Below, one piece after another: positions 3,051-48,642 of a stretch of 64,000 nucleotides of DNA. Location of the stretch: NCBI RefSeq assembly GCF_003334255.1, contig NZ_QOWU01000005.1; one strand, given 5' to 3'. This stretch comes from Escherichia coli (GTDB lineage Bacteria > Pseudomonadota > Gammaproteobacteria > Enterobacterales > Enterobacteriaceae). The notes under the pieces are model-generated. The model was not told where the DNA came from and searched no databases. It saw nothing but the letters and a program-made list of their open reading frames with translations. How positions within the stretch are numbered: the first letter of the stretch is position 1; the number at the start of each line of letters is the position of its first letter. Both the position numbers and the translations under genes were made by a program.

Positions 3051-3120
3051 GTAAATAATGACAAAAACAAAATTGGCCGTTTCGGTCAGGGCCAACTATT
3101 GCCTGAAAAAGGGTAACGAC

Positions 3121-7436: not shown

Positions 7437-7730
7437 CCGGCAATAGTTGCCGGATGCGGCGTGAACGCCTTATCCGGCCTACGGCTCTGTGCTCGGGTCT
7501 TGTAGGTCTGATAAGACGCGTCAGCGTCGCATCAGGCACTGAATGCCGGATGCTGAATAAACGCCTTATCCGGCCTACGGTTCTGTGCTCGGGACTTGTA
7601 GGCCTGATAAGACGCGCCAGCGTCGCATCAGGCACTGAATGCCGGATGCGGCGTGAACGCCTTATCAGTCCTACGGTTCTGTGCTCGGACCTTGTAGGCC
7701 TGATAAGACGCGCCAGGCAAAAAGCGGCAA
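7437..7730. repeat. REP/BIME array: about three tandem ~100-bp units of palindromic REP sequences
   Basis: Repeated GCCGGATGCGGCGTGAACGCCTTATCCGGCCTACGG...GTAGGCCTGATAAGACGCG units between wzxC and wcaK; overlapping ORFs 7372..7764(-) and 7421..7783(+) are repeat artefacts. Confidence 0.7.
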
Positions 7731-11856: not shown

Positions 11857-12750
11857 ATGACGAATTTAAAAGCAGTTATTCCTGTGGCGGGTCTTGGGAT
11901 GCATATGTTGCCTGCCACTAAGGCGATTCCCAAAGAGATGCTACCGATCGTCGACAAGCCAATGATTCAGTACATTGTTGACGAGATTGTGGCTGCAGGG
12001 ATCAAAGAAATCCTCCTGGTAACTCACGCGTCCAAGAACGCGGTCGAAAACCACTTCGACACCTCTTATGAATTAGAATCTCTCCTTGAACAGCGCGTGA
12101 AGCGTCAACTACTGGCGGAAGTGCAGTCCATCTGTCCGCCGGGCGTGACCATTATGAACGTGCGTCAGGGCGAACCTTTAGGTTTGGGCCACTCCATTTT
12201 GTGTGCACGACCTGCCATTGGTGACAACCCATTTGTCGTGGTGCTGCCAGACGTTGTGATCGATGACGCCAGCGCCGACCCGCTGCGCTACAATCTTGCT
12301 GCCATGATTGCGCGCTTCAACGAAACGGGCCGCAGCCAGGTGCTGGCAAAACGTATGCCGGGTGACCTCTCTGAATACTCCGTCATTCAGACCAAAGAAC
12401 CGCTGGATCGTGAAGGTAAAGTCAGCCGCATTGTTGAATTTATCGAAAAACCGGATCAGCCGCAGACGCTGGACTCAGATATTATGGCCGTTGGTCGCTA
12501 TGTGCTTTCTGCCGATATTTGGCCGGAACTTGAACGTACTCAGCCTGGTGCATGGGGGCGTATTCAGCTGACTGATGCCATTGCCGAACTGGCGAAAAAA
12601 CAGTCCGTTGATGCAATGCTGATGACTGGTGACAGCTACGACTGCGGTAAAAAAATGGGCTATATGCAGGCGTTTGTGAAGTATGGACTGCGCAACCTGA
12701 AAGAAGGGGCGAAGTTCCGTAAAGGTATTGAAAAGCTGTTAAGCGAATAA
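11857..12750 (+). CDS. galF: UTP-glucose-1-phosphate uridylyltransferase regulatory paralogue GalF
   Basis: ORF 11845..12750; start placed at [14 protein letters not shown] (nucleotidyltransferase N-terminus) from recalled GalF length. Confidence 0.92.
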
Positions 12751-22554: not shown

Positions 22555-23457
22555 ATGACTGTTATTGCTATAGTTGTAACATTTAATCGCTGTGCGCTTT
22601 TGAAAAAAGTTTTGCATTCGTTGCTTTCTCAATCAATTGCATTAAATAAAATAATAATCATTGATAATGATAGTAATGATGATACAGCTAAAGTCGTGCA
22701 TGATTTTTCTGAAGTGGATGATATTTTTTATTATTATAACACAGGAGATAATCTGGGAGGGGCTGGAGGGTTTTATCAGGGGTTTAAAATCGCAGAGCAG
22801 TTTTATTATGACTATCTTTGGTTAATGGATGATGACCTTCTACCTGAGCCTGATTGCCTAGAGAAATTAATCCAAGATAGGCCAGAAGGAATTGTTCAGC
22901 CGGTAAGATACGATCTTGATGGTGCTTGTGCTGAAATATCACCTGTTGAGTATAATCTTCAAAAAATATTTTGCAGGAATCCTAAAACCAAAACAGTAAA
23001 AGAAGTGATTTCAACAGTTATTTCTGATAATTGTCGGGAAATCGATATTGCAGGTGTTCCTTTTGAAGGTCCTTTAATTTCAAAGTCGGTAGTTAATAAA
23101 GTGGGGTATCCAAATCCTGATTTTTTTATTTTTAATGATGATCTTGATTATTCGTTAAGGACGAGAAGTAAAGGTTTCTCTATAAAGTGTATAGTCGACG
23201 CCAGGGCTACAAGGCTTTTAAAAAATAATCAAAAAAATGATTTGAAAAGCTGGAAAGGATATTTCATGTTGAGAAATCATTATTATATCCTACGAAACTA
23301 TGGTGAAAATAAGCTCGTTAAGAATCGAGTCTATCTCATCATGTTTTATTATTTTTTGAAGTCAGTTTTTTCTTTTGATTATAAGTTCGCAAAAGTGGTT
23401 ATTTTTTCTTTTAAAGATTCATTTTCGCTTAAAAATAGCAAAAGATTTCGACCATAG
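22555..23457 (+). CDS. Glycosyltransferase, family GT2 (paralogue of upstream gene)
   Basis: 300-aa ORF: IAIVVTFNRCALLKKVLHSLLSQS...NLGGAGGF...WLMDDD; shares motif order with the 21488..22447 product. Confidence 0.7.
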   Translation: MTVIAIVVTFNRCALLKKVLHSLLSQSIALNKIIIIDNDSNDDTAKVVHDFSEVDDIFYYYNTGDNLGGAGGFYQGFKIAEQFYYDYLWLMDDDLLPEPDCLEKLIQDRPEGIVQPVRYDLDGACAEISPVEYNLQKIFCRNPKTKTVKEVISTVISDNCREIDIAGVPFEGPLISKSVVNKVGYPNPDFFIFNDDLDYSLRTRSKGFSIKCIVDARATRLLKNNQKNDLKSWKGYFMLRNHYYILRNYGENKLVKNRVYLIMFYYFLKSVFSFDYKFAKVVIFSFKDSFSLKNSKRFRP

Positions 23458-23509
23458 TTTTTATTTTTGGATAAACGCTGTTATCACAACTGATCGGAGT
23501 AATTCTTAA

Positions 23510-24916
23510 ATGTCAAAGCAACAGATCGGCGTCGTCGGTATGGCAGTGATGGGGCGCAACCTTGCGCTCAACATCGAAAGCCGTGGTTATACCGTCTCTA
23601 TTTTCAACCGTTCCCGTGAAAAGACGGAAGAAGTGATTGCCGAAAATCCAGGCAAGAAACTGGTTCCTTACTATACGGTGAAAGAGTTTGTTGAATCTCT
23701 GGAAACGCCTCGTCGCATCCTGTTAATGGTGAAAGCAGGTGCAGGCACGGATGCTGCTATTGATTCCCTCAAGCCATACCTCGATAAAGGTGACATCATC
23801 ATTGATGGTGGTAATACCTTCTTCCAGGACACCATTCGTCGTAACCGTGAGCTTTCTGCAGAAGGCTTTAACTTCATCGGTACCGGTGTTTCCGGTGGTG
23901 AAGAGGGCGCGCTGAAAGGTCCTTCCATTATGCCTGGTGGCCAGAAAGAAGCCTATGAACTGGTTGCTCCGGTCCTGACCAAAATCGCCGCAGTAGCTGA
24001 AGACGGTGAGCCATGCGTTACCTATATTGGTGCCGATGGCGCAGGTCACTATGTGAAGATGGTTCATAACGGTATTGAATACGGTGATATGCAGCTGATT
24101 GCTGAAGCCTATTCTCTGCTTAAAGGTGGCCTGAACCTCACCAACGAAGAATTGGCGCAGACCTTTACCGAGTGGAATAACGGTGAACTGAGCAGCTACC
24201 TGATCGACATCACCAAAGATATCTTCACCAAAAAAGATGAAGACGGTAACTACCTGGTTGATGTGATCCTGGATGAAGCTGCTAACAAAGGTACCGGTAA
24301 ATGGACCAGCCAGAGCGCGCTGGATCTCGGCGAACCGCTGTCGCTGATTACCGAGTCTGTGTTTGCACGTTATATCTCTTCTCTGAAAGATCAGCGTGTT
24401 GCCGCATCTAAAGTTCTCTCTGGCCCGCAAGCGCAGCCAGCTGGCGACAAAGGTGAGTTCATCGAAAAAGTTCGTCGTGCTCTGTATCTGGGCAAAATCG
24501 TTTCTTACGCGCAGGGCTTCTCTCAGCTGCGTGCTGCGTCTGAAGAGTACAACTGGAATCTGAACTACGGCGAAATCGCGAAGATTTTCCGTGCTGGCTG
24601 CATCATCCGTGCGCAGTTCCTGCAGAAAATCACCGATGCATATACAGAAAATCCGCAGATCGCTAACCTGCTGCTGGCTCCGTACTTCAAGCAAATCGCC
24701 GATGACTACCAGCAGGCGCTGCGTGATGTCGTTGCTTATGCGGTACAGAACGGTATCCCGGTTCCGACCTTCGCCGCTGCGGTTGCCTATTATGACAGCT
24801 ACCGTGCCGCTGTTCTGCCTGCGAACCTGATCCAGGCACAGCGTGACTATTTCGGTGCGCATACTTATAAGCGCATTGATAAAGAAGGTGTGTTCCATAC
24901 TGAATGGCTGGATTAA
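23510..24916 (+). CDS. gnd: 6-phosphogluconate dehydrogenase, decarboxylating
   Basis: 468-aa ORF with N-terminal [15 protein letters not shown] Rossmann motif; GC content and codon usage return abruptly to backbone values. Confidence 0.95.
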
Positions 24917-24944
24917 TCTGATTTAAATCAATTAACCAACACAA

Positions 24945-24973
24945 GGCCCGGAGAAACCCTCCGGGCTTTTTTA
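24945..24973 (+). terminator. Rho-independent terminator after gnd
   Basis: GGCCCGGAGAAACCCTCCGGGC hairpin followed by a T-tract. Confidence 0.6.
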
Positions 24974-25164
24974 TTATACAAAGCGGCAGGTTATGGCCTT
25001 TTTTTATAATTTATGATTAAAAAAGCGATATAATACAGAGCCGCACAGCAGGATCGCTGTCTTGACAGTTCAACCGCATCAGCGTTAAAAATCCCGCAGT
25101 AGATGAAGTTGTGGTGGTGGACTAATGACCACTCTAAATGTTTAACCGGAAGAAGTCAGAGCTA

Positions 25165-26331
25165 ATGAAAATAACAATTTCAGGAACAGGTTATGTTGGT
25201 CTTTCAAATGGTATTCTGATTGCGCAAAACCACGAAGTGGTTGCACTGGATATCGTTCAGGCCAAAGTGGACATGCTTAACAAGAAGCAGTCACCGATTG
25301 TTGATAAGGAGATTGAAGAGTATCTGGCGACTAAAGATCTCAATTTCCGCGCTACGACAGATAAGTACGACGCGTATAAAAATGCCGATTACGTTATTAT
25401 TGCCACACCTACCGATTATGATCCGAAAACGAATTATTTTAATACCTCAAGCGTGGAAGCGGTCATTCGCGATGTGACAGAAATTAATCCTAATGCGGTA
25501 ATGATTATAAAATCAACTATCCCTGTTGGTTTTACAGAGTCCATTAAAGAACGTTTTGGTATTGAAAATGTGATCTTTTCGCCTGAGTTTTTGCGTGAAG
25601 GTAAAGCACTTTATGATAACTTACACCCATCACGCATTGTGATTGGCGAGCAGTCTGAACGCGCTGAACGTTTTGCTGCGTTATTACAGGAAGGCGCCAT
25701 TAAGCAAGACATACCAACATTGTTTACTGACTCAACCGAAGCTGAGGCGATTAAACTTTTTGCCAACACTTATCTGGCTATGCGTGTAGCGTATTTCAAT
25801 GAACTTGATAGTTATGCTGAAAGCCTGGGGCTTAATTCACGCCAGATTATTGAGGGCGTATGCCTTGACCCGCGTATCGGTAATCACTACAACAACCCGT
25901 CATTCGGTTATGGTGGTTATTGTCTGCCGAAAGATACCAAGCAGTTACTGGCAAATTACCAGTCTGTGCCGAATAACCTGATCTCGGCAATTGTTGACGC
26001 CAACCGCACGCGCAAAGATTTTATTGCCGATTCTATCCTTGCACGTAAACCGAAAGTTGTTGGCGTCTATCGTCTGATTATGAAGAGTGGTTCGGACAAT
26101 TTCCGTGCTTCCTCGATTCAGGGTATTATGAAGCGAATCAAGGCGAAAGGTGTGCCAGTAATCGTTTATGAGCCAGCGATGAAAGAGGACGATTTTTTCC
26201 GTTCGCGCGTGGTACGTGATCTGGATGCGTTCAAACAAGAAGCTGATGTTATTATTTCTAACCGTATGTCTGCCGATCTGGCTGATGTAGCAGATAAGGT
26301 TTATACGCGCGACTTGTTTGGCAATGATTAA
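25165..26331 (+). CDS. ugd: UDP-glucose 6-dehydrogenase
   Basis: ORF 25138..26331; start placed at [14 protein letters not shown] (NAD-binding motif); catalytic region [10 protein letters not shown] present. Confidence 0.93.
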
Positions 26332-26350
26332 TTATTTTGTTTCATACTAA

Positions 26351-26381
26351 GAAAAGGCCCTAATAAATTAGGGCCTTTTCT
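26351..26381. terminator. Bidirectional hairpin terminator between convergent ugd and the epimerase gene
   Basis: AAAAGGCCCTAATAAATTAGGGCCTTTT perfect inverted repeat flanked by A and T runs. Confidence 0.55.
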
Positions 26382-26396
26382 TATGGTTTTATAAAA

Positions 26397-27401
26397 TCAA
26401 ACTTTATAGAAGTTACGATACCATTCTACAAAGTTCTTTACCCCCTCTTTAACTGACGTTTCAGGTTTGAATCCTATTACGTCATACAGTGCTTTTGTAT
26501 CAGCACTGGTTTCCAGTACATCACCGGGTTGGAGAGGCATCATATTCTTGTTGGCTTCAATACCCAGAGCCTCTTCTAAGGCATTGATATAGTCCATTAA
26601 CTCCACAGGCGAACTATTACCAATGTTATAGACACGATATGGTGCTGAACTTGTTGCTGGCGAGCCTGTTTCTACAGCCCACTGTGGATCTTTTTCTGGA
26701 ATAACATCCTGTAAGCGAATAATAGCTTCGGCAATATCATCAATATAAGTAAAGTCACGCTTCATTTTGCCGAAGTTGTAAACATCAATGCTTTTACCTT
26801 CCAGCATGGCTTTAGTGAATTTAAATAATGCCATATCCGGACGTCCCCATGGACCATAAACCGTAAAGAAACGCAGCCCTGTGGTCGGTAAGCCATACAA
26901 ATGAGAATACGTATGGGCCATGAGTTCATTCGCCTTTTTAGTTGCTGCATACAGCGAAACAGGATGATCTACAGAGTCATCTGTAGAGAAAGGCATCTTG
27001 CGGTTCATGCCATAAACAGAACTGGAGGAAGCGTAAAGTAGATGCCGAACATTATTATGGCGACATCCTTCCAGTATGTTCAGGAATCCAATCAGGTTTG
27101 CATCTGCATATGCATTGGGATTTTCAAGGGAGTAACGTACACCGGCTTGCGCAGCGAGGTTTATTACGCGTTCGAACCGCTCGTCTGCAAACAGTGCCGC
27201 CATTTTCTCACGATCGGCCAGGTCAATTTTATAAAAACTGAAGTTGTCGTGCTTGAGTAAATCAAGTCGTGCTTGTTTGAGGTTGACATCGTAATAATCA
27301 TTTAAGTTGTCAATGCCTACAACCTGATGACCAGCTGCAAGAAGCCGTTTACTTACATAGAAACCGATAAAGCCAGCAGCTCCCGTAACCAGAAATTTCA
27401 T
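26397..27401 (-). CDS. gla: UDP-glucuronate 4-epimerase (NAD-dependent epimerase/dehydratase, SDR family)
   Basis: 334-aa ORF: MKFLVTGAAGFIGFYVSKRLL Rossmann motif, YAATK catalytic motif; gene symbol is recalled usage and less certain than the family call. Confidence 0.8.
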   Translation of the reverse strand: MKFLVTGAAGFIGFYVSKRLLAAGHQVVGIDNLNDYYDVNLKQARLDLLKHDNFSFYKIDLADREKMAALFADERFERVINLAAQAGVRYSLENPNAYADANLIGFLNILEGCRHNNVRHLLYASSSSVYGMNRKMPFSTDDSVDHPVSLYAATKKANELMAHTYSHLYGLPTTGLRFFTVYGPWGRPDMALFKFTKAMLEGKSIDVYNFGKMKRDFTYIDDIAEAIIRLQDVIPEKDPQWAVETGSPATSSAPYRVYNIGNSSPVELMDYINALEEALGIEANKNMMPLQPGDVLETSADTKALYDVIGFKPETSVKEGVKNFVEWYRNFYKV

Positions 27402-27565
27402 TTATAATCCTCGCTCAGGCTAGAATATAGCCAATATTCATCTGGCATAACTGAAAGTTAAATCATACCGTTAGACAAGAAAAAAAGATAATCGGTATCA
27501 GTTCTAAACCTGGCTGTTTTTTCTGGTAACGTGCTCATTTTACAATCAAAGCTGTTCTAAGCTGA

Positions 27566-27679
<114 letters not shown>

Positions 27680-27825
27680 CATCCTGTTATCAGGGCGATT
27701 TTCGCCCTGATTCTCTTATGTTCCCTTTGTAATAATTCATTATTTTTATCATTTATCCTATAGCATTCATGGCGATTATCACTAAACTATGGCGACTTAA
27801 AATTATTTCGTCCATTAGGGTAATG

Positions 27826-28803
27826 ATGAGAGTAGAAAATAATAATGTTTCTGGGCAAAACCATGACCCGGAACAGATTGATTTGATTGATTTACTGGTG
27901 CAGTTGTGGCGCGGCAAGATGACTATCATCATTTCTGTCATTGTGGCTATTGCCCTGGCTATAGGGTATCTGGCCGTTGCCAAAGAAAAGTGGACTTCCA
28001 CAGCTATCGTTACTCAACCTGATGTGGGGCAAATCGCTGGTTATACCAACGCGATGAATGTGATCTACGGTTCGGCTGTACCGAAAGTCTCCGACATTCA
28101 GGCTTCACTTATCGGACGTTACAGCACTGCATTCTCAGCATTAGCGGAAACGCTGGATAACCAGGAAGAAGCAGAGAAGCTGACCATTGAGCCTACCGTT
28201 AAAAACCAGTCGTTACCATTGGCGGTGTCTTATGTTGGTGAAACACCTGAAGGTGCGCAGAAGCAGCTGGCGAAGTATATCCAGCAAGTTGACGACCAGG
28301 TAAACGAAGAACTGGAAAAAGACCTGACAGACAACATCGCGCTGCGTATGAAAAACTTGCAGGATTCTCTGAAGACCCAGGAAGTGGTTGCGCAGGAGCA
28401 GAAAGATCTGCGTATCCGTCAGATTCAGGAAGCGTTGCAGTATGCGAATCAGGCGCAGGTGACAAAGCCGCAGATTCAGCAGACACAGGACGTAACCCAA
28501 GATACTATGTTCCTTTTGGGGAGCGAAGCGCTGGAGTCGATGATTAAGCATGAGGCGACCCGTCCGTTGGTGTTCTCACCAAACTACTATCAGACTCGTC
28601 AAAACCTGCTGGATATCGAAAACTTAAAGGTTGATGATCTTGATATTCATGCTTACCGCTATGTAATGAAACCGACGTTACCTATTCGTCGCGATAGTCC
28701 GAAAAAGGCAATCACCTTGATTCTGGCGGTGCTGCTGGGCGGCATGGTTGGCGCGGGGATTGTCTTGGGGCGTAACGCTCTGCGTAATTACAACGCGAAG
28801 TAA
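27826..28803 (+). CDS. wzzB: O-antigen chain-length determinant (Wzz, polysaccharide co-polymerase 1)
   Basis: ORF 27769..28803; start placed at MRVENNNVSGQNHDPEQIDLIDL; two TM segments flank a coiled-coil periplasmic domain; C-terminal GR-rich TM2. Confidence 0.92.
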   Translation: MRVENNNVSGQNHDPEQIDLIDLLVQLWRGKMTIIISVIVAIALAIGYLAVAKEKWTSTAIVTQPDVGQIAGYTNAMNVIYGSAVPKVSDIQASLIGRYSTAFSALAETLDNQEEAEKLTIEPTVKNQSLPLAVSYVGETPEGAQKQLAKYIQQVDDQVNEELEKDLTDNIALRMKNLQDSLKTQEVVAQEQKDLRIRQIQEALQYANQAQVTKPQIQQTQDVTQDTMFLLGSEALESMIKHEATRPLVFSPNYYQTRQNLLDIENLKVDDLDIHAYRYVMKPTLPIRRDSPKKAITLILAVLLGGMVGAGIVLGRNALRNYNAK

Positions 28804-28821
28804 TCTTTTCGGTTTTAAAGA

Positions 28822-28858
28822 AAAAGGGCAGGGTGGTGACACCTTGCCCGTTTTTTTT
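28822..28858. terminator. Hairpin terminator between convergent wzzB and hisI
   Basis: GGGCAGGGTGGTGACACCTTGCCC hairpin followed by T8. Confidence 0.55.
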
Positions 28859-28898
28859 CCGGATGCGACAACAACATTGCATCCGCTTACCGCGCAAC

Positions 28899-29503
28899 TC
28901 ACTGATGCCGTTTACGCAGGTTCTCAATTACCGTCGTTAAATCCAGATTCTGATCCTGCAACAGCACTAGCAAGTGATACATCAAGTCAGATGCTTCGTT
29001 GGTCAGTTCAAAGCGGTCATGCACCGTTGCTGCCAGTGCGGTTTCCACGCCTTCTTCGCCCACTTTCTGCGCAATGCGCTTGGTGCCGCTGGCATACAGT
29101 TTGGCGGTGTAGGAGGTTTCCGGGTCGGCAGATTTACGTTCGGCGAGCAGTTGTTCCAGTTGATACAGGAACAGCCACTGGTGAGCGGTGTCGCCGAAGC
29201 AGCTGCTGGTGCCTTTGTGGCAGGTCGGGCCGATGGGATTCGCCAGCAACAGTAACGTGTCGTTGTCGCAGTCCGGCGCAATATTTACTACGTTGAGGAA
29301 ATTGCCCGACGTTTCGCCTTTGGTCCACAGTCGCTGTTTAGTGCGCGAGAAGAAGGTGACTTTGCCGCTTTCGATGGTTTTATCTAAGGCTTCCGGGTTC
29401 ATATAGCCCAGCATTAACACTTCACCGGATACCGCGTGCTGCACAATCACCGGCATAAGTCCGTCGGTTTTTTCCCAGTCCAGTTCGCGACGTTGTTGTT
29501 CTG

Positions 29504-29510
<7 letters not shown>
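28899..29510 (-). CDS. hisI: Bifunctional phosphoribosyl-AMP cyclohydrolase / phosphoribosyl-ATP pyrophosphatase
   Basis: 203-aa ORF recognised as HisIE; last gene of the his operon. Confidence 0.95.
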
Positions 29511-31588
<2,078 letters not shown>

Positions 31589-31589
<1 letters not shown>

Positions 31590-32655
31590 TACAGCACTCC
31601 TTTCGACGAGGGCAGGGTATCGCCTTCCACGCGGATGGCCTGGCGCAGGGTGCGACCAAAAGCTTTGAACAGGCTCTCTACACGGTGGTGATCGTTTTTA
31701 CCTTTGGTTTTCAGGTGCAGGGTCACGCCCATGGTGTATGAGAGCGAACGGAAGAAGTGCTCGATCATTTCGGTGCTGAGATCGCCCACGCGCTGGTAGG
31801 TAAACTCGGCTTTATATTCCAGGTGTGGGCGACCAGAGATATCCAGCGCGCAGCGGGCAAGGCATTCGTCCATCGGTAGCACAAAACCAAAGCGGCAAAT
31901 ACCGCGTTTATCGCCGAGGGCAATTTTTAACGCTTCGCCCAGCGCCAGGCCGGTATCTTCGACGGTGTGGTGATCGTCGATATAGAGGTCGCCTTTGACG
32001 TTGATTTCCATACGGAAACCGCCGTGGGTGGCGATCTGATCCAGCATGTGATCAAAGAAGCCAACGCCGGTGTTAATCTTGCTGCCACCTTCGCGATCCA
32101 GCCACACCTGGACGTCAATTTGCGTCTCTTTGGTGTTGCGCACTACATGGGCGTAACGGTCTCGTTTAGTGAGTTGCTCGCCAATCATCGGCCAGTTCAG
32201 GGTTTCGCGGTCGTAGCGTAAACCATTAATACCCATGTTTTCCGCCAGTTGAATGTCGGTCGCGCGATCGCCAATCACATAACTGTTAGCGCGATCCATC
32301 GCTTGCTCAGCCAGATAACGCTCCACCAGTTTTACTTTCGGCTTACGGCAGTCGCACTCATCGGCGGGCAGGTGCGGACAAATCAGCACTTCATCAAACT
32401 GCACGCCTTGCGAGGTGAAGATCTGCATCATCAGGTTGTGCGGGCCATCAAAATCCGCCTGCAGGAAACTTTGTGTTCCCAGACCATCCTGATTAGTGAT
32501 CATCACCAGCTTGTAGCCCGCTTTTTGCAGCTTCAGCAGTTCCGGGATCACGCCCGGTTCAAAGGCGAGTTTGTCAAAACGGTCCACCTGAAAATCACTC
32601 GGCGGTTCGCTAATCAGGGTTCCATCGCGATCGATAAAAAGATACTTCTGACTCA

Positions 32656-32656
<1 letters not shown>
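31589..32656 (-). CDS. hisB: Bifunctional histidinol-phosphatase / imidazoleglycerol-phosphate dehydratase
   Basis: ORF 31589..32659; start placed at [14 protein letters not shown] (HAD motif). Confidence 0.95.
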
Positions 32657-35027
<2,371 letters not shown>

Positions 35028-35032
35028 GGCGA

Positions 35033-35935
35033 TCACTCCATCATCTTCTCAATCGGCAGGACCAGGATTGAACTGGCACCCAGCGCTTTCAGTTTTTCCA
35101 TGGTTTCCCAGAACAGGGTTTCGCTACTGACCATGTGCATCGCTACGCGCTGTTGATCACCCGCCAGCGGTAGAATAGTTGGGCGTTCGGCACCTGGCAG
35201 CAGGGCGATGACTTCATCCAGACGTTCGGTCGGTGCGTGCATCATGATGTATTTTGATTCGCGCGCCTGGATCACACCCTGAATACGGGTCAGCAGTTTG
35301 TCGATCAGTTGCTGTTTGGATTCTTCCATTTCGCCATCGCGCTGGATCAGGCAGGCTTTCGAGCGGTAGATAACTTCGACTTCGCGCAGGCCGTTTGCTT
35401 CCAGCGTGGCACCGGTGGAAACCAGATCGCAAATCGCATCCGCCAGTCCGGCGCGCGGGGCGACTTCAACAGAACCGTTCAGTAAGCAGGATTTAAAAGA
35501 GATGCCTTTCTGGTCGAGATATCGCTTGAGCAGGTGAGGATAAGAGGTGGCGATACGTTTACCGTTTAAGGAGAGCGGGCCGTCCCAGGCTTCATCAACC
35601 GGCGTTGCCAGCGAAAGGCGACAACCGCCGAAATCCAGACGACGCAGGGTAAAGTAGCGTGGATCCTCACCCTGGGCGCGGCGGTTAAGCAGCTCTTCTT
35701 CCAGCACGTTTTCGCCGATAATCCCAAGGTCTACTACGCCATCCATTACCAGACCGGGAATGTCGTCGTCACGTACGCGTAGAATATCAATCGGCATGTT
35801 TTCTGCCATCGCGATCAGGCGCTGGGTGTGAAGATTGATTTTAATACCACAGCGCGCCAGTAATTCGCGTGAGTCATCACTTAAACGGCCGGATTTCTGC
35901 ATAGCTATGCGTAAACGAGTGTTGTCTGTCATTTT
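35033..35935 (-). CDS. hisG: ATP phosphoribosyltransferase
   Basis: ORF 35033..35971; start placed at [21 protein letters not shown]. Confidence 0.93.
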
Positions 35936-35980
35936 CTTATTCCTCTTTAAACCTGTCTGAACCGTTATCAACCGCGCAAT

Positions 35981-36019
35981 AAAAAAGCCCCCGGAAGGTG
36001 ATCTTCCGGGGGCTTTCTC
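35981..36019 (-). terminator. his attenuator terminator hairpin
   Basis: On the - strand: GAGAAAGCCCCCGGAAGATCACCTTCCGGGGGCTTTTTT, between hisL and hisG. Confidence 0.8.
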
Positions 36020-36077
36020 ATGCGTTCATGCACCACTGGAAGATCTGAATGTCTTCCAGCACACATCGCCTGAAAGA

Positions 36078-36128
36078 CTAGTCAGGATGATGGTGATGAT
36101 GGTGGTGTTTAAATTGAACGCGTGTCAT
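36078..36128 (-). CDS. hisL: his operon leader peptide (MTRVQFKHHHHHHHPD)
   Basis: Reverse-strand reading of ATGACACGCGTTCAATTTAAACACCACCATCATCACCATCATCCTGACTAG gives 16 aa with seven consecutive His codons. Confidence 0.9.
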   Translation of the reverse strand: MTRVQFKHHHHHHHPD

Positions 36129-36410
36129 AAAAGTCTCTGTGAATGTTTATTCAACTGATGTCTTTTAACCTAAACCACTTTCACGTTAGAAAGCAAGGGC
36201 TTTTTTATATATTTTATGGCAATGGATTTGTTTAATGAATGAGCGGGGAAAGGAGGGGGCTAAGAGGACTGTCCTCTAAGCTGACGGCACCAAAAATAGC
36301 GAAGCCTGGATTTTCGTCTCACTGACAATACCTTGATCTACAAACTAATTAATAAATAGTTAATTAACGCCCATCATTGTACAATGAACTGTACAAAAGA
36401 GGAGATTGAC

Positions 36411-36662
36411 ATGCGTACAATTAGCTACAGCGAAGCGCGTCAGAATTTGTCGGCAACAATGATGAAAGCCGTTGAAGATCATGCCCCGATCCTTATTACT
36501 CGTCAGAATGGAGAGGCTTGTGTTCTGATGTCACTCGAAGAATACAACTCGCTGGAAGAGACGGCTTATCTACTGCGCTCCCCCGCTAACGCCCGGAGAT
36601 TGATGGACTCAATCGATAGCCTGAAATCAGGCAAAGGAACAGAAAAGGACATTATTGAGTGA
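36411..36662 (+). CDS. yefM: Antitoxin YefM (Phd/YefM family)
   Basis: ORF 36384..36662; start placed at [32 protein letters not shown]; 4-bp overlap with yoeB. Confidence 0.9.
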
Positions 36663-36913
36663 AACTAATCTGGTCTGAGGAATCATGGGATGATTATATG
36701 TACTGGCAGGAAACAGATAAGCGAATTGTTAAAAAGATCAATGAACTTATCAAAGATACCCGCAGAACGCCATTTGAAGGTAAGGGGAAGCCAGAACCCC
36801 TGAAACATAATTTGTCAGGTTTCTGGTCCCGACGCATTACAGAGGAGCACCGTCTGGTATACGCGGTTACCGACGATTCACTGCTCATTGCAGCATGTCG
36901 TTATCATTATTGA
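36659..36913 (+). CDS. yoeB: Toxin YoeB (RelE-fold ribosome-dependent mRNA interferase)
   Basis: 84-aa [71 protein letters not shown]. Confidence 0.92.
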
Positions 36914-38795: not shown

Positions 38796-39061
38796 AGAAA
38801 AATTATTATGACAAGCCTCTCATTCTCTTGTCATTTCCCCCCCATTTAGGCACAATGCGCCGCTGTCAAAAAATGACTAAAAACCGACGTTTCATCAGCG
38901 TCGGTTATTTTTTGCTTCAAACCAATCATTCATACCAAGAGGCCGGGCTTCGTACCGGATAGATATTTACTAAAAATCGACAGTTGTTGTCGCTGAGGAA
39001 TCCAAAAAAATGGGGCAATTTTTTGCTTACGCGACGGTTATCACCGTAAAGGAGAATGACC

Positions 39062-46762: not shown

Positions 46763-47092
46763 ATGGAAACTACCAAGCCTTCATTCCAGGACGTACTGGA
46801 ATTTGTTCGTCTGTTCCGTCGTAAGAACAAACTGCAACGTGAAATTCAGGACGTTGAGAAAAAGATCCGTGACAACCAGAAGCGCGTCCTGTTGCTGGAC
46901 AACCTGAGCGATTACATCAAGCCAGGGATGAGCGTTGAAGCAATCCAGGGCATCATCGCCAGCATGAAAGGTGACTATGAAGATCGCGTTGACGATTACA
47001 TCATCAAAAATGCCGAGCTCTCCAAAGAACGCCGCGATATCTCCAAAAAGCTGAAAGCTATGGGCGAAATGAAAAACGGCGAAGCGAAGTAA
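46763..47092 (+). CDS. yeeX: UPF0265 protein YeeX
   Basis: ORF 46697..47092; start placed at [30 protein letters not shown] (109 aa). Confidence 0.88.
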
Positions 47093-47192
47093 TTCCCGTT
47101 TTATTCAATGAGGGTTGCCCGGCAACCCTCATTGCTCATTGATTCTTATCTGTGTATCACCGTCATCATTCTCATCTGAGAACCAATCGAAA

Positions 47193-47375
47193 TTAACAAC
47201 AGCCTTCTTCTGTATGCAGCAAGGCAAAAAGTTCTGTAACTCCATTGTTATTAACTGCACTGGTTACTAACACGTTGTGCGCTCCAGCTTCCCGTAACCA
47301 ACTTTTCACCAAAGATATTTGTTCCATGCTGGCTAAATCTGCTTTGGTTACTACTCCAATGACCGGGTGATTCAT
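47193..47375 (-). pseudogene. C-terminal fragment of an EutP/PduV-family small GTPase (yoeF-like relic)
   Basis: Only the last ~60 aa (MNHPVIGVVTKADLASMEQISLVKSWLREAGAHNVLVTSAVNNNGVTELFALLHTEE) resemble EutP/PduV; the upstream part of the called ORF runs antisense over the IS66 fragment. Confidence 0.5.
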
Positions 47376-47442
47376 GGCCCGGTAGGGCGTTTTTACCTCT
47401 AATTCCTGCTTCAGCGCTGAGATTCCTGCTTGTTGCCGGAAA

Positions 47443-47575
47443 AGCAGGCACCTGCCGTCTGAACGGTATCGATCCGGAAGCGTATCTGCGCCATATTCTG
47501 AGCATACTGCCGGAATGGCCCTCCAACCGTGTTGACGAACTCCTGCCATGGAACGTAGTTCTCACCAATAAATAA
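47443..47575 (+). pseudogene. 3' fragment of an IS66-family transposase gene
   Basis: Translation AGTCRLNGIDPEAYLRHILSILPEWPSNRVDELLPWNVVLTNK* matches the conserved C-terminus of IS66 TnpC-type transposases; no upstream transposase body is present. Confidence 0.6.
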
Positions 47576-47989
47576 GCGTCAATACGGTGCTCCGTTGACG
47601 CTTACTTTAATCCGTTTTCTGAGCTTAGATTTTTCTGTTCCTACCCAGACCGTGGATTTGGAATTCATTTTTTGTCAGGTCAATGCTAATCGTTAAAACG
47701 GCCATAACGCACCTCCACTGGAAGGTTTATCAGTAATATCCTACCGTTGCTTCATGGTCGGGGCGTCCATTCCATTATTATCGGTTTTCCTTTCTGTTTA
47801 TAAATGAAAACGCCAGCTGTATTCAGGCTGGCGTCAGGGGAAATGAAGCCTGTTGAGTGAGATTCACCGGTTCTGGTGCAGAAGCTGCAGATGGCGCAGG
47901 GTAAGGACATCTTCTCTTGCCTGCTTAATACAGGACAACAGTGCTGTTTCTGTGGTTAATGGCACTATACCCTGCATCACTGCATTGTC

Positions 47990-48184
47990 TTACAGCAACT
48001 GGTGAGGGCTGGCATAAGTTGCCGGTGTTTCGGTAGAGTCACGGTCATCCACCACGCGGAGTGAATAACCGTTTTCAGCGGCCTTATTAATCAGTTCAGT
48101 GATATTAACACCATCAATGTCAACGACAATGTGCCCCATATCCAGCGCCTGTACGTTAACGCTGTCGGCTTCCAGTGTCATCAT
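47990..48184 (-). CDS. yeeW: Small prophage protein, YeeW-like
   Basis: 64-aa ORF immediately downstream of cbtA, overlapping its stop by 4 bp (ATGA). Confidence 0.55.
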   Translation of the reverse strand: MMTLEADSVNVQALDMGHIVVDIDGVNITELINKAAENGYSLRVVDDRDSTETPATYASPHQLL

Positions 48185-48554
48185 TTCGCCTCCGGATACT
48201 TACCCAGGGTAATGTTATTTACCGTTCTGTAATTGTCGCGGGTCATCAGGCCGGTCGCCCTGCGAGCCCGGAGGATATCGATGCTGTTTATTAACTGAGA
48301 GCGGGTACAGGCGCTGAATCCCGGCTGGTCGGTAGCACCAGCGCGTATTTTTCCACGAGAAAGTTCACCGCATCACACAGTGAAATGCCTGCCTCAATAT
48401 GCTGCTCAATCACACGTTCATCGGCAAAAGGTGTGTCATTCAGTGTGAGGCCATAGTGCTGGTCCAGCAGTCGGGACAGCAGTATCTGCCAGATTTCAAC
48501 AGGAGACGGGCGAGAACTGGCCGCCTGCCCGGGTAATACAGGTAATGTTTTCAT
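48181..48554 (-). pseudogene. cbtA: CbtA (YeeV) cytoskeleton-binding toxin gene, disrupted by a -1 frameshift
   Basis: ORF 48291..48554 gives the CbtA N-terminus ([73 protein letters not shown]); the C-terminus ([50 protein letters not shown]) continues in another frame from about 48300. Confidence 0.75.
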
Positions 48555-48642
48555 ACTGAAGATTTTCCTGATATGCAGATATAAAAATGGAAAAGTGGCG
48601 TGGTGAAAACACCAGGCCGTAGCAGAAGGCTATTCTGGAGAG

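Follow-up and report, generated by a model that had tools for sequence, protein, structure and literature searches.

The leader region of the hisLGDCBHAFI operon in the analyzed Escherichia coli DNA, a window of 64,000 nucleotides, is almost certainly a ribosome-mediated transcription attenuator. The evidence lies in the sequence elements of the region, its identity to K-12, its membership of an Rfam family, and, for its alternative helices, the order in which they form and their feasibility in energy terms. The his leader is a founding example of both transcription attenuation and hairpin-stabilized RNA polymerase pausing, and the copy described here is the ordinary, already known E. coli attenuator, with no new biology. 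Its elements lie on the minus strand, and their coordinates are given below from high to low, in the direction of transcription.

Membership of the His_leader family (RF00514) was established by a minus-strand match at 35979-36102 scoring 131.6 bits against a gathering score of 49 (E = 2.6e-23) and covering the full model, positions 1-126 of 126. RcsR1, Thr_leader, Phe_leader, Spot_42, NsiR1, and some miRNA families also matched, all on the terminator hairpin and all below their gathering thresholds, and were rejected, as was a plus-strand mirror match to His_leader on the same hairpin. By alignment, the region is 100% identical to K-12 MG1655 over a stretch that begins 174 nt upstream of the hisL ATG and ends 6 nt short of the hisG ATG. 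The nearest difference is at hisG position -5 (window position 35936), in the gap that separates the Shine-Dalgarno sequence from the start codon, where the window has G and MG1655 has C. The exact 60-mer around 35936 occurs within the at least 99% identity band in 1911 complete genomes, indicating that this substitution is a common polymorphism. A 501-nt leader query found a match in 5424 of 5426 complete E. coli genomes, with RefSeq features beneath it annotated as "hisL: his operon leader peptide," "His leader region," and "hisG," and the 226 nt from promoter through terminator were at least 99% identical in 5199 of the 5424.

Reading and translation of the minus strand identified hisL at 36128-36078, with 16 codons plus TAG (ATG ACA CGC GTT CAA TTT AAA CAC CAC CAT CAT CAC CAT CAT CCT GAC TAG). 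The start ATG is at 36128 and the stop TAG occupies 36080-36078. The predicted peptide, MTRVQFKHHHHHHHPD, is 100% identical to K-12 HisL. Both translation and a pattern search placed seven consecutive His codons (CACCACCATCATCACCATCAT) at 36107-36087, so that tandem codons for the regulated amino acid make up 7 of the 16 codons of this short leader ORF. The run would act as the sensor of charged tRNA-His supply. The (CAY)7 motif was unique to hisL on both strands of the 64-kb window and appeared in none of 100 dinucleotide-preserving shuffles. The stop codon is placed to block the first alternative helix: the TAG abuts or overlaps the 5' arm of B:C (36078-36070), and the 10-13 nt downstream footprint of a ribosome at that codon covers the arm. 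Variants of the leader peptide were seen elsewhere. One genome of Trabulsiella odontotermitis carries ten consecutive His codons rather than seven (L060:1187-1345), and the peptide of E. coli E69 begins MVRVQF... rather than MTRVQF... (L030:6899-7057). A 32-aa ORF at 36066-35968, overlapping the attenuator, was without support.

Downstream of hisL and ahead of hisG, the first structural gene, the same strand carries an intrinsic terminator, the E:F attenuator hairpin (36021-35978). Its stem pairs 36018-36003 with 35997-35982 around an AUCAC loop, with a GC core of 36013-36003 paired with 35997-35987, and it is followed by the U-tract UUUUUUAUU (35986-35978); 46 nt separate the whole from the hisG ATG downstream. 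The sequence UGAGAAAGCCCCCGGAAG-AUCAC-CUUCCGGGGGCUUUUUUAU (36020-35979) folds into a perfect hairpin of -31.7 kcal/mol, against a shuffle mean of -10.9 (z = -7.4), and none of 200 shuffles was as stable. In isolation, 36021-35979 reached -32.2 kcal/mol, and it corresponds to consensus hairpin 3 of the Rfam model.

Such a hairpin might be an ordinary, possibly bidirectional intrinsic terminator, with the His-rich ORF either coincidental or encoding a functional micro-protein. Its palindromic character suffices for a weak plus-strand Rfam match (31.9 bits, below the gathering score), and several unrelated Rfam families match it below threshold. However, no gene ends upstream of it on either strand, since yefM-yoeB is divergent and hisG lies downstream on the same strand, and its plus-strand side is without a proper U-tract. 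The His codons are no better accommodated: a (CAY)7 run has zero expectation by chance (0 in the 100 shuffles), and the match to all 126 positions of the family model extends beyond the terminator alone. Together with existing K-12 and Salmonella genetics, which speak against the His codons being replaceable, these points make a plain terminator scarcely conceivable and favor an attenuator under ribosome control.

Upstream of and overlapping the terminator, the leader can form a series of further helices, all on the minus strand. The A:B hairpin (36095-36060; -11.7 kcal/mol in isolation) and the C:D hairpin (36060-36035; -11.9 kcal/mol in isolation) correspond to Rfam consensus hairpins 1 and 2, respectively. 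The B:C alternative hairpin, which pairs GUCUUUCAG with CUGGAAGAC (36078-36051), was predicted at -10.6 kcal/mol in isolation, and the D:E antiterminator, which pairs GAUCUUCC with GGAAGAUC and adds inner pairs (36045-36000), at -15.2 kcal/mol in isolation. Adjacent helices share a strand and are thus mutually exclusive. In the folding models D:E sequesters the 5' arm of the terminator, as positions 36007-36000 are common to both. Folding thus gave, as thermodynamic feasibility, an antiterminator that is exclusive with the terminator and could be chosen by ribosome position. The whole leader folded at -69.8 kcal/mol (z = -7.2 against shuffles), with A:B, C:D, E:F, and a long-range stem around the first two.

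A preliminary description of this DNA had reported a hisL gene with seven consecutive His codons, followed before hisG by a GC-rich hairpin and T-tract at 35981-36019. Minus-strand translation bore out the former (36128-36078, with the run at 36107-36087), and folding showed the latter to be real (z = -7.4). Loss of the His codon run, which it had named as the sign of a reading error, did not occur; the run is present and intact at 36107-36087. The interval that it assigned to the control region, 35936-36130, takes in hisL, every hairpin, and the greater part of the spacer before hisG, and ends short of both the promoter (36196-36167) and the hisG start codon.

The his promoter, hisLp, is assigned to 36196-36167 on the minus strand, with a -35 element TTGCTT (36196-36191), an 18-nt spacer, and a -10 element TAGGTT (36172-36167), and it is identical in sequence to that of K-12 by alignment. 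We presume that transcription starts near 36160, which gives a leader RNA of ~180 nt; this length and the hexamer assignment follow established knowledge of the promoter (Verde 1981; Frunzio 1981; Riggs 1986, the last being among the references of PMC10989985). A simple consensus scan did not call the his promoter, the two hexamers each matching consensus at 3 of 6 positions. A similar scan for terminators did not call the his attenuator, because extension of the stem by the A-U pairs of AAAG/CUUU consumes the U-tract and leaves fewer than 5 T in the tail window. Both missed calls are limitations of the tools and are no evidence of absence.

Within A:B lies the his pause hairpin (36086-36069, minus strand), with a 5-bp stem, CCUGA/UCAGG, and an 8-nt loop. 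It is followed by the putative RNA polymerase pause site at 36067-36057, with G-10 at 36067, U-1 at 36058, and G+1 at 36057. U36058 stands 11 nt past the pause hairpin, and the stem-loop thus spans -29 to -12 relative to the pause. We take U36058 to be the exact paused nucleotide from established knowledge of the his pause. The hisL pause described in PMC9291695 has a hairpin at -30 to -11 and the consensus G-10 Y-1 G+1. As sequence features, pause consensus and hairpin spacing in the leader analyzed here agree with that description. More generally, where the polymerase pauses, where transcription starts, and how the leader responds to histidine would be as established for K-12 and Salmonella.

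From these elements the following course of events may be proposed. Transcription would start at the his promoter, ~32 nt upstream of hisL. RNA polymerase would transcribe hisL and pause at U36058, held by the A:B pause hairpin, until a ribosome translating hisL melts that hairpin and releases the pause, so that translation and transcription become coupled. When charged tRNA-His is plentiful, the ribosome is expected to pass the seven His codons and reach the TAG at 36080-36078, where its footprint would lie over B. With B covered, C:D and then E:F would form, and E:F with its U-tract would end transcription before hisG. With little charged tRNA-His at hand, the ribosome would stall in the His run and cover A only, allowing B:C to form as C emerges. 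D would then be left free to form D:E before F is made, the terminator would be blocked, and the polymerase would read on into hisG-hisI. If hisL is not translated at all, A:B, C:D, and E:F may all form, and transcription would terminate. Johnston et al., in 1980, reportedly described the same outcomes, with a ribosome stalled for lack of His-tRNA-His giving readthrough and free-running or absent translation giving termination. Histidine- or tRNA-His-dependent readthrough in vivo is presumably as published for K-12 and Salmonella, and we carry it over by virtue of the identity to K-12. The classical model of his attenuation has been restated in two papers (PMC10989985 and PMC9291695).

Attenuation is decided during RNA synthesis, and it was therefore modeled by folding truncated nascent transcripts with the ribosome footprint masked (equilibrium minimum free energy [MFE]). 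Without a mask, the nascent transcripts formed A:B first, then C:D, and then E:F. With the mask in the His run, B:C was the MFE structure once C had emerged (-10.8 to -12.1 kcal/mol), and for a transcript just short of F the MFE structure combined B:C with D:E at -28.8 kcal/mol, so that the terminator's 5' arm was already engaged. For a ribosome at the stop codon, the footprint lay over B, C:D formed as D emerged, and the full transcript carried C:D and E:F; in the pre-F transcript, D:E (-20.3 kcal/mol) was slightly preferred to C:D (-16.6 kcal/mol). The full-length transcript formed the terminator at equilibrium under every mask, and equilibrium folding of the full-length leader was thus uninformative as a test of the switch and was replaced by the truncated transcripts. 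The terminator in every full transcript, together with the preference for D:E at the stop codon, implies that the outcome depends on kinetics. In this model the kinetic decision would involve the order in which the RNA is synthesized, how fast E:F nucleates, and release of the ribosome.

The preliminary description had called the region the classical attenuator, an assignment now backed by the Rfam score, the identity to K-12, the RefSeq annotation, and the exclusive pairings. Both checks that it had proposed gave agreement: alignment with the E. coli and Salmonella leaders returned identity to K-12 and slight differences from Salmonella in the terminator, and folding of the leader transcript reproduced the classical alternative pairings.

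We compared the leader with those of other enterobacteria by searching one genome per species for the pattern (CAY)7-CCN-GAY-TAR, which returned 76 loci, all in Enterobacteriaceae or related MAGs. The alignment comprised the window and 56 distinct, complete leaders from among these loci. The exact His7-Pro-Asp-stop pattern selected close relatives, and the sample thus stands for these, with Yersinia, Vibrio, and Pasteurellaceae lying outside it. Segments B, C, D, E, and F were almost invariant across genera, and variation was confined to the loops of C:D and of the terminator, the D-E spacer, and the stretch that follows the U-tract. In the terminator state 98.7% of cells were pairable, compared with 41-50% when partners were slid by 1-3 columns, and in the antiterminator state the corresponding values were 99.6% and 42-53%. 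Pairability of individual helices was 100% for B:C, 100% for C:D, and 99.1% for D:E. The invariance of B, C, and D again tells against a plain terminator, in which these segments would have no role, and is consistent with a ribosome-controlled attenuator.

No compensatory double substitutions were seen among the 56 leaders, whose stems are nearly invariant, and shuffle controls equaled the observed values. Covariation is uninformative here because the stems hardly vary in a pattern-selected set, and the alignment demonstrates conservation and pairability, not covariation. The sole frequent stem substitution was an A-to-G change in segment C, present in 16 of 56 leaders. This base lies opposite U in both B:C and C:D, and the substitution therefore keeps both competing helices.

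The long-range stem of the MFE structures pairs GCGUUCA with UGAACGC (36121-36115 / 36028-36022, minus strand). It joins hisL codons 3-5 to the D-E spacer and encloses A:B and C:D in the untranslated conformer. It was 99.2% pairable in the 56 leaders, and all of its substitutions were wobble compatible (G-C to G-U and U-A to U-G). PMC10989985 credits a tRNA-His-like cloverleaf of the his leader to Ames et al. 1983, and 36121-36115 / 36028-36022 corresponds to the closing stem of that cloverleaf. It is probably also the stem that PMC10989985 describes as built by rDnaA boxes 2 and 3. The stem might be a separately selected element, for example a platform for DnaA or for a tRNA-His-recognizing protein (PMC10989985), and no passive by-product of the leader fold, but we regard this as unlikely. 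Were it so, every E. coli his leader would share the property, and it would not be special to this window.

A related proposal bears on the mechanism itself. Yao et al. (2023, PMC10989985) argue that DnaA binds "rDnaA boxes" in the leader RNA and is required for attenuation, which would then work mainly as a DnaA-dependent riboswitch and not by ribosome position alone. They report that hisG is expressed more highly when dnaA is mutated, that HisL-SL RNA immunoprecipitates with DnaA in vivo, and that the box-like sequences are conserved. The helix of boxes 2 and 3 is plausibly the long-range stem, whose 99.2% pairability in 56 leaders would suit the proposal; RNA structure alone, however, explains this conservation equally well. 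Each rDnaA box has two mismatches to the 9-nt consensus, and the same paper found no DnaA-RNA binding in vitro, its authors conceding that there is no conclusive evidence of direct binding. An earlier Salmonella study put the effect of dnaA down to the gene dosage of hisR (tRNA-His), and in PMC10989985 the effect of ribosome absence or early release was independent of DnaA. We therefore consider it very unlikely that DnaA is the main agent of attenuation. DnaA control is at most an added layer and no replacement for ribosome-mediated attenuation, which remains the preferred reading of this leader.

Downstream of the attenuator, the hisG Shine-Dalgarno sequence, AAGAGGA, lies at 35947-35941 and the hisG start ATG at 35932 (minus strand), giving a product of 299 aa, as in K-12. 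Together with the hisG Shine-Dalgarno sequence, hisG-D-C-B-H-A-F-I span 28899-35947 on the minus strand, and in a tblastn search with K-12 proteins all eight His proteins were full length and gap free, with 98-100% identity to K-12. Two longer candidate ORFs, a 312-aa "hisG" from TTG 35971 (the true start being ATG 35932) and a 437-aa "hisD" from GTG 35036, were artifacts of the ORF rule. The leader is directly upstream of an intact hisG-hisI in the conserved yefM-yoeB / his / wzzB neighborhood. The gene order is that of annotated near-identical genomes, with yefM-yoeB divergent upstream and hisG-D-C-B-H-A-F-I followed by wzzB downstream. The trans factors of his attenuation are tRNA-His, HisRS, the tRNA modification enzyme TruA/HisT, and ppGpp synthesis. 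That the operon's regulation is intact, as the preliminary description had also stated, holds for the cis sequence and the hisGDCBHAFI reading frames, and stops there: the trans factors lie outside the window. The value of the result is as annotation only, namely that the strain has a cis-regulatory region of the standard kind and that its his operon is complete, and histidine biosynthesis should accordingly be regulated as in K-12.

Other features of the window were recorded. The type II toxin-antitoxin pair yefM-yoeB lies at 36384-36913 on the plus strand, divergent from hisL, and a TGTACA-N6-TGTACA repeat near 36377-36394, just upstream of the yefM start, resembles the known YefM operator. 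At least 80% of the stretch 35900-36400 was covered in only 4212 of 5424 genomes, indicating within-species variation in the DNA that precedes the his promoter. An O-antigen gene cluster occupies 12500-28900 (plus strand), downstream of galF and a JUMPstart element (13009-13047), and its wzx and wzy are annotated as "O167 family." Among 5426 complete E. coli genomes, only 3 had at least 80% of this stretch, the best being strain 214-4 (NZ_CP025840.1, 99.9%). NZ_CP025840.1 has an ISAs1 transposase pseudogene just past the JUMPstart region and a NAD-dependent epimerase gene between ugd and wzzB. Strain 214-4 shares the O-antigen cluster and differs in a CP4-44-like island, which extends over ~47000-64000 in the window and carries cbtA/cbeA, yeeS/yeeT, and antirestriction and DUF932 genes. 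The island also contains, by annotation, an adjacent trio encoding a dynamin-family protein, an RdcB-family diguanylate cyclase regulator, and a patatin-like phospholipase, followed by a GTPase-family gene. The best-matching genomes have ~2 kb more than the window in this region (23,964 bases in the record versus a query of 22,001), which is probably an IS100 that the record annotates. Other elements that exceeded the Rfam gathering score were an algC RNA motif at 3067-3116 (plus strand), upstream of cpsG in the colanic-acid cluster; two naRNA4 (REP-derived) elements at 2910-2980 and 7601-7671 (both minus strand); and STnc240 at 38841-38915 (plus strand), downstream of yeeY. No tRNA genes were found in the window.

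The his leader shares its logic with trpL, thrL, leuL, ilvL, and pheL, all of which combine tandem regulatory codons in a short leader ORF and coupling by a pause hairpin with mutually exclusive antiterminator and terminator helices. In trpL there are only two Trp codons and four segments (1-4), against seven His codons and six segments (A-F) in the his leader; trp also has a repressor, TrpR, whereas to our knowledge the his operon has no operon-specific repressor. In the Rfam scan, Thr_leader (22.8 bits) and Phe_leader (21.5 bits) matched at the his locus below threshold, by way of the terminator. Histidine genes of Gram-positive bacteria are also regulated, by T-box leaders and HisR (PMC9413887), and the T-box likewise acts at the RNA level on tRNA-His charging. 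The mechanisms are nevertheless unrelated to that of the his leader: a T-box leader binds uncharged tRNA directly and needs no leader peptide, and HisR represses by binding DNA. Both are absent here, and the Rfam scan of the window gave no T-box match. The closest counterparts are the his leaders of K-12 and Salmonella Typhimurium, which have the same peptide (MTRVQFKHHHHHHHPD), segments A-F, pause hairpin, terminator, promoter, and position upstream of hisG. Salmonella (L028 and L049) differs in its terminator, with an AUCAU loop and U8 where the window has AUCAC and UUUUUUAUU.
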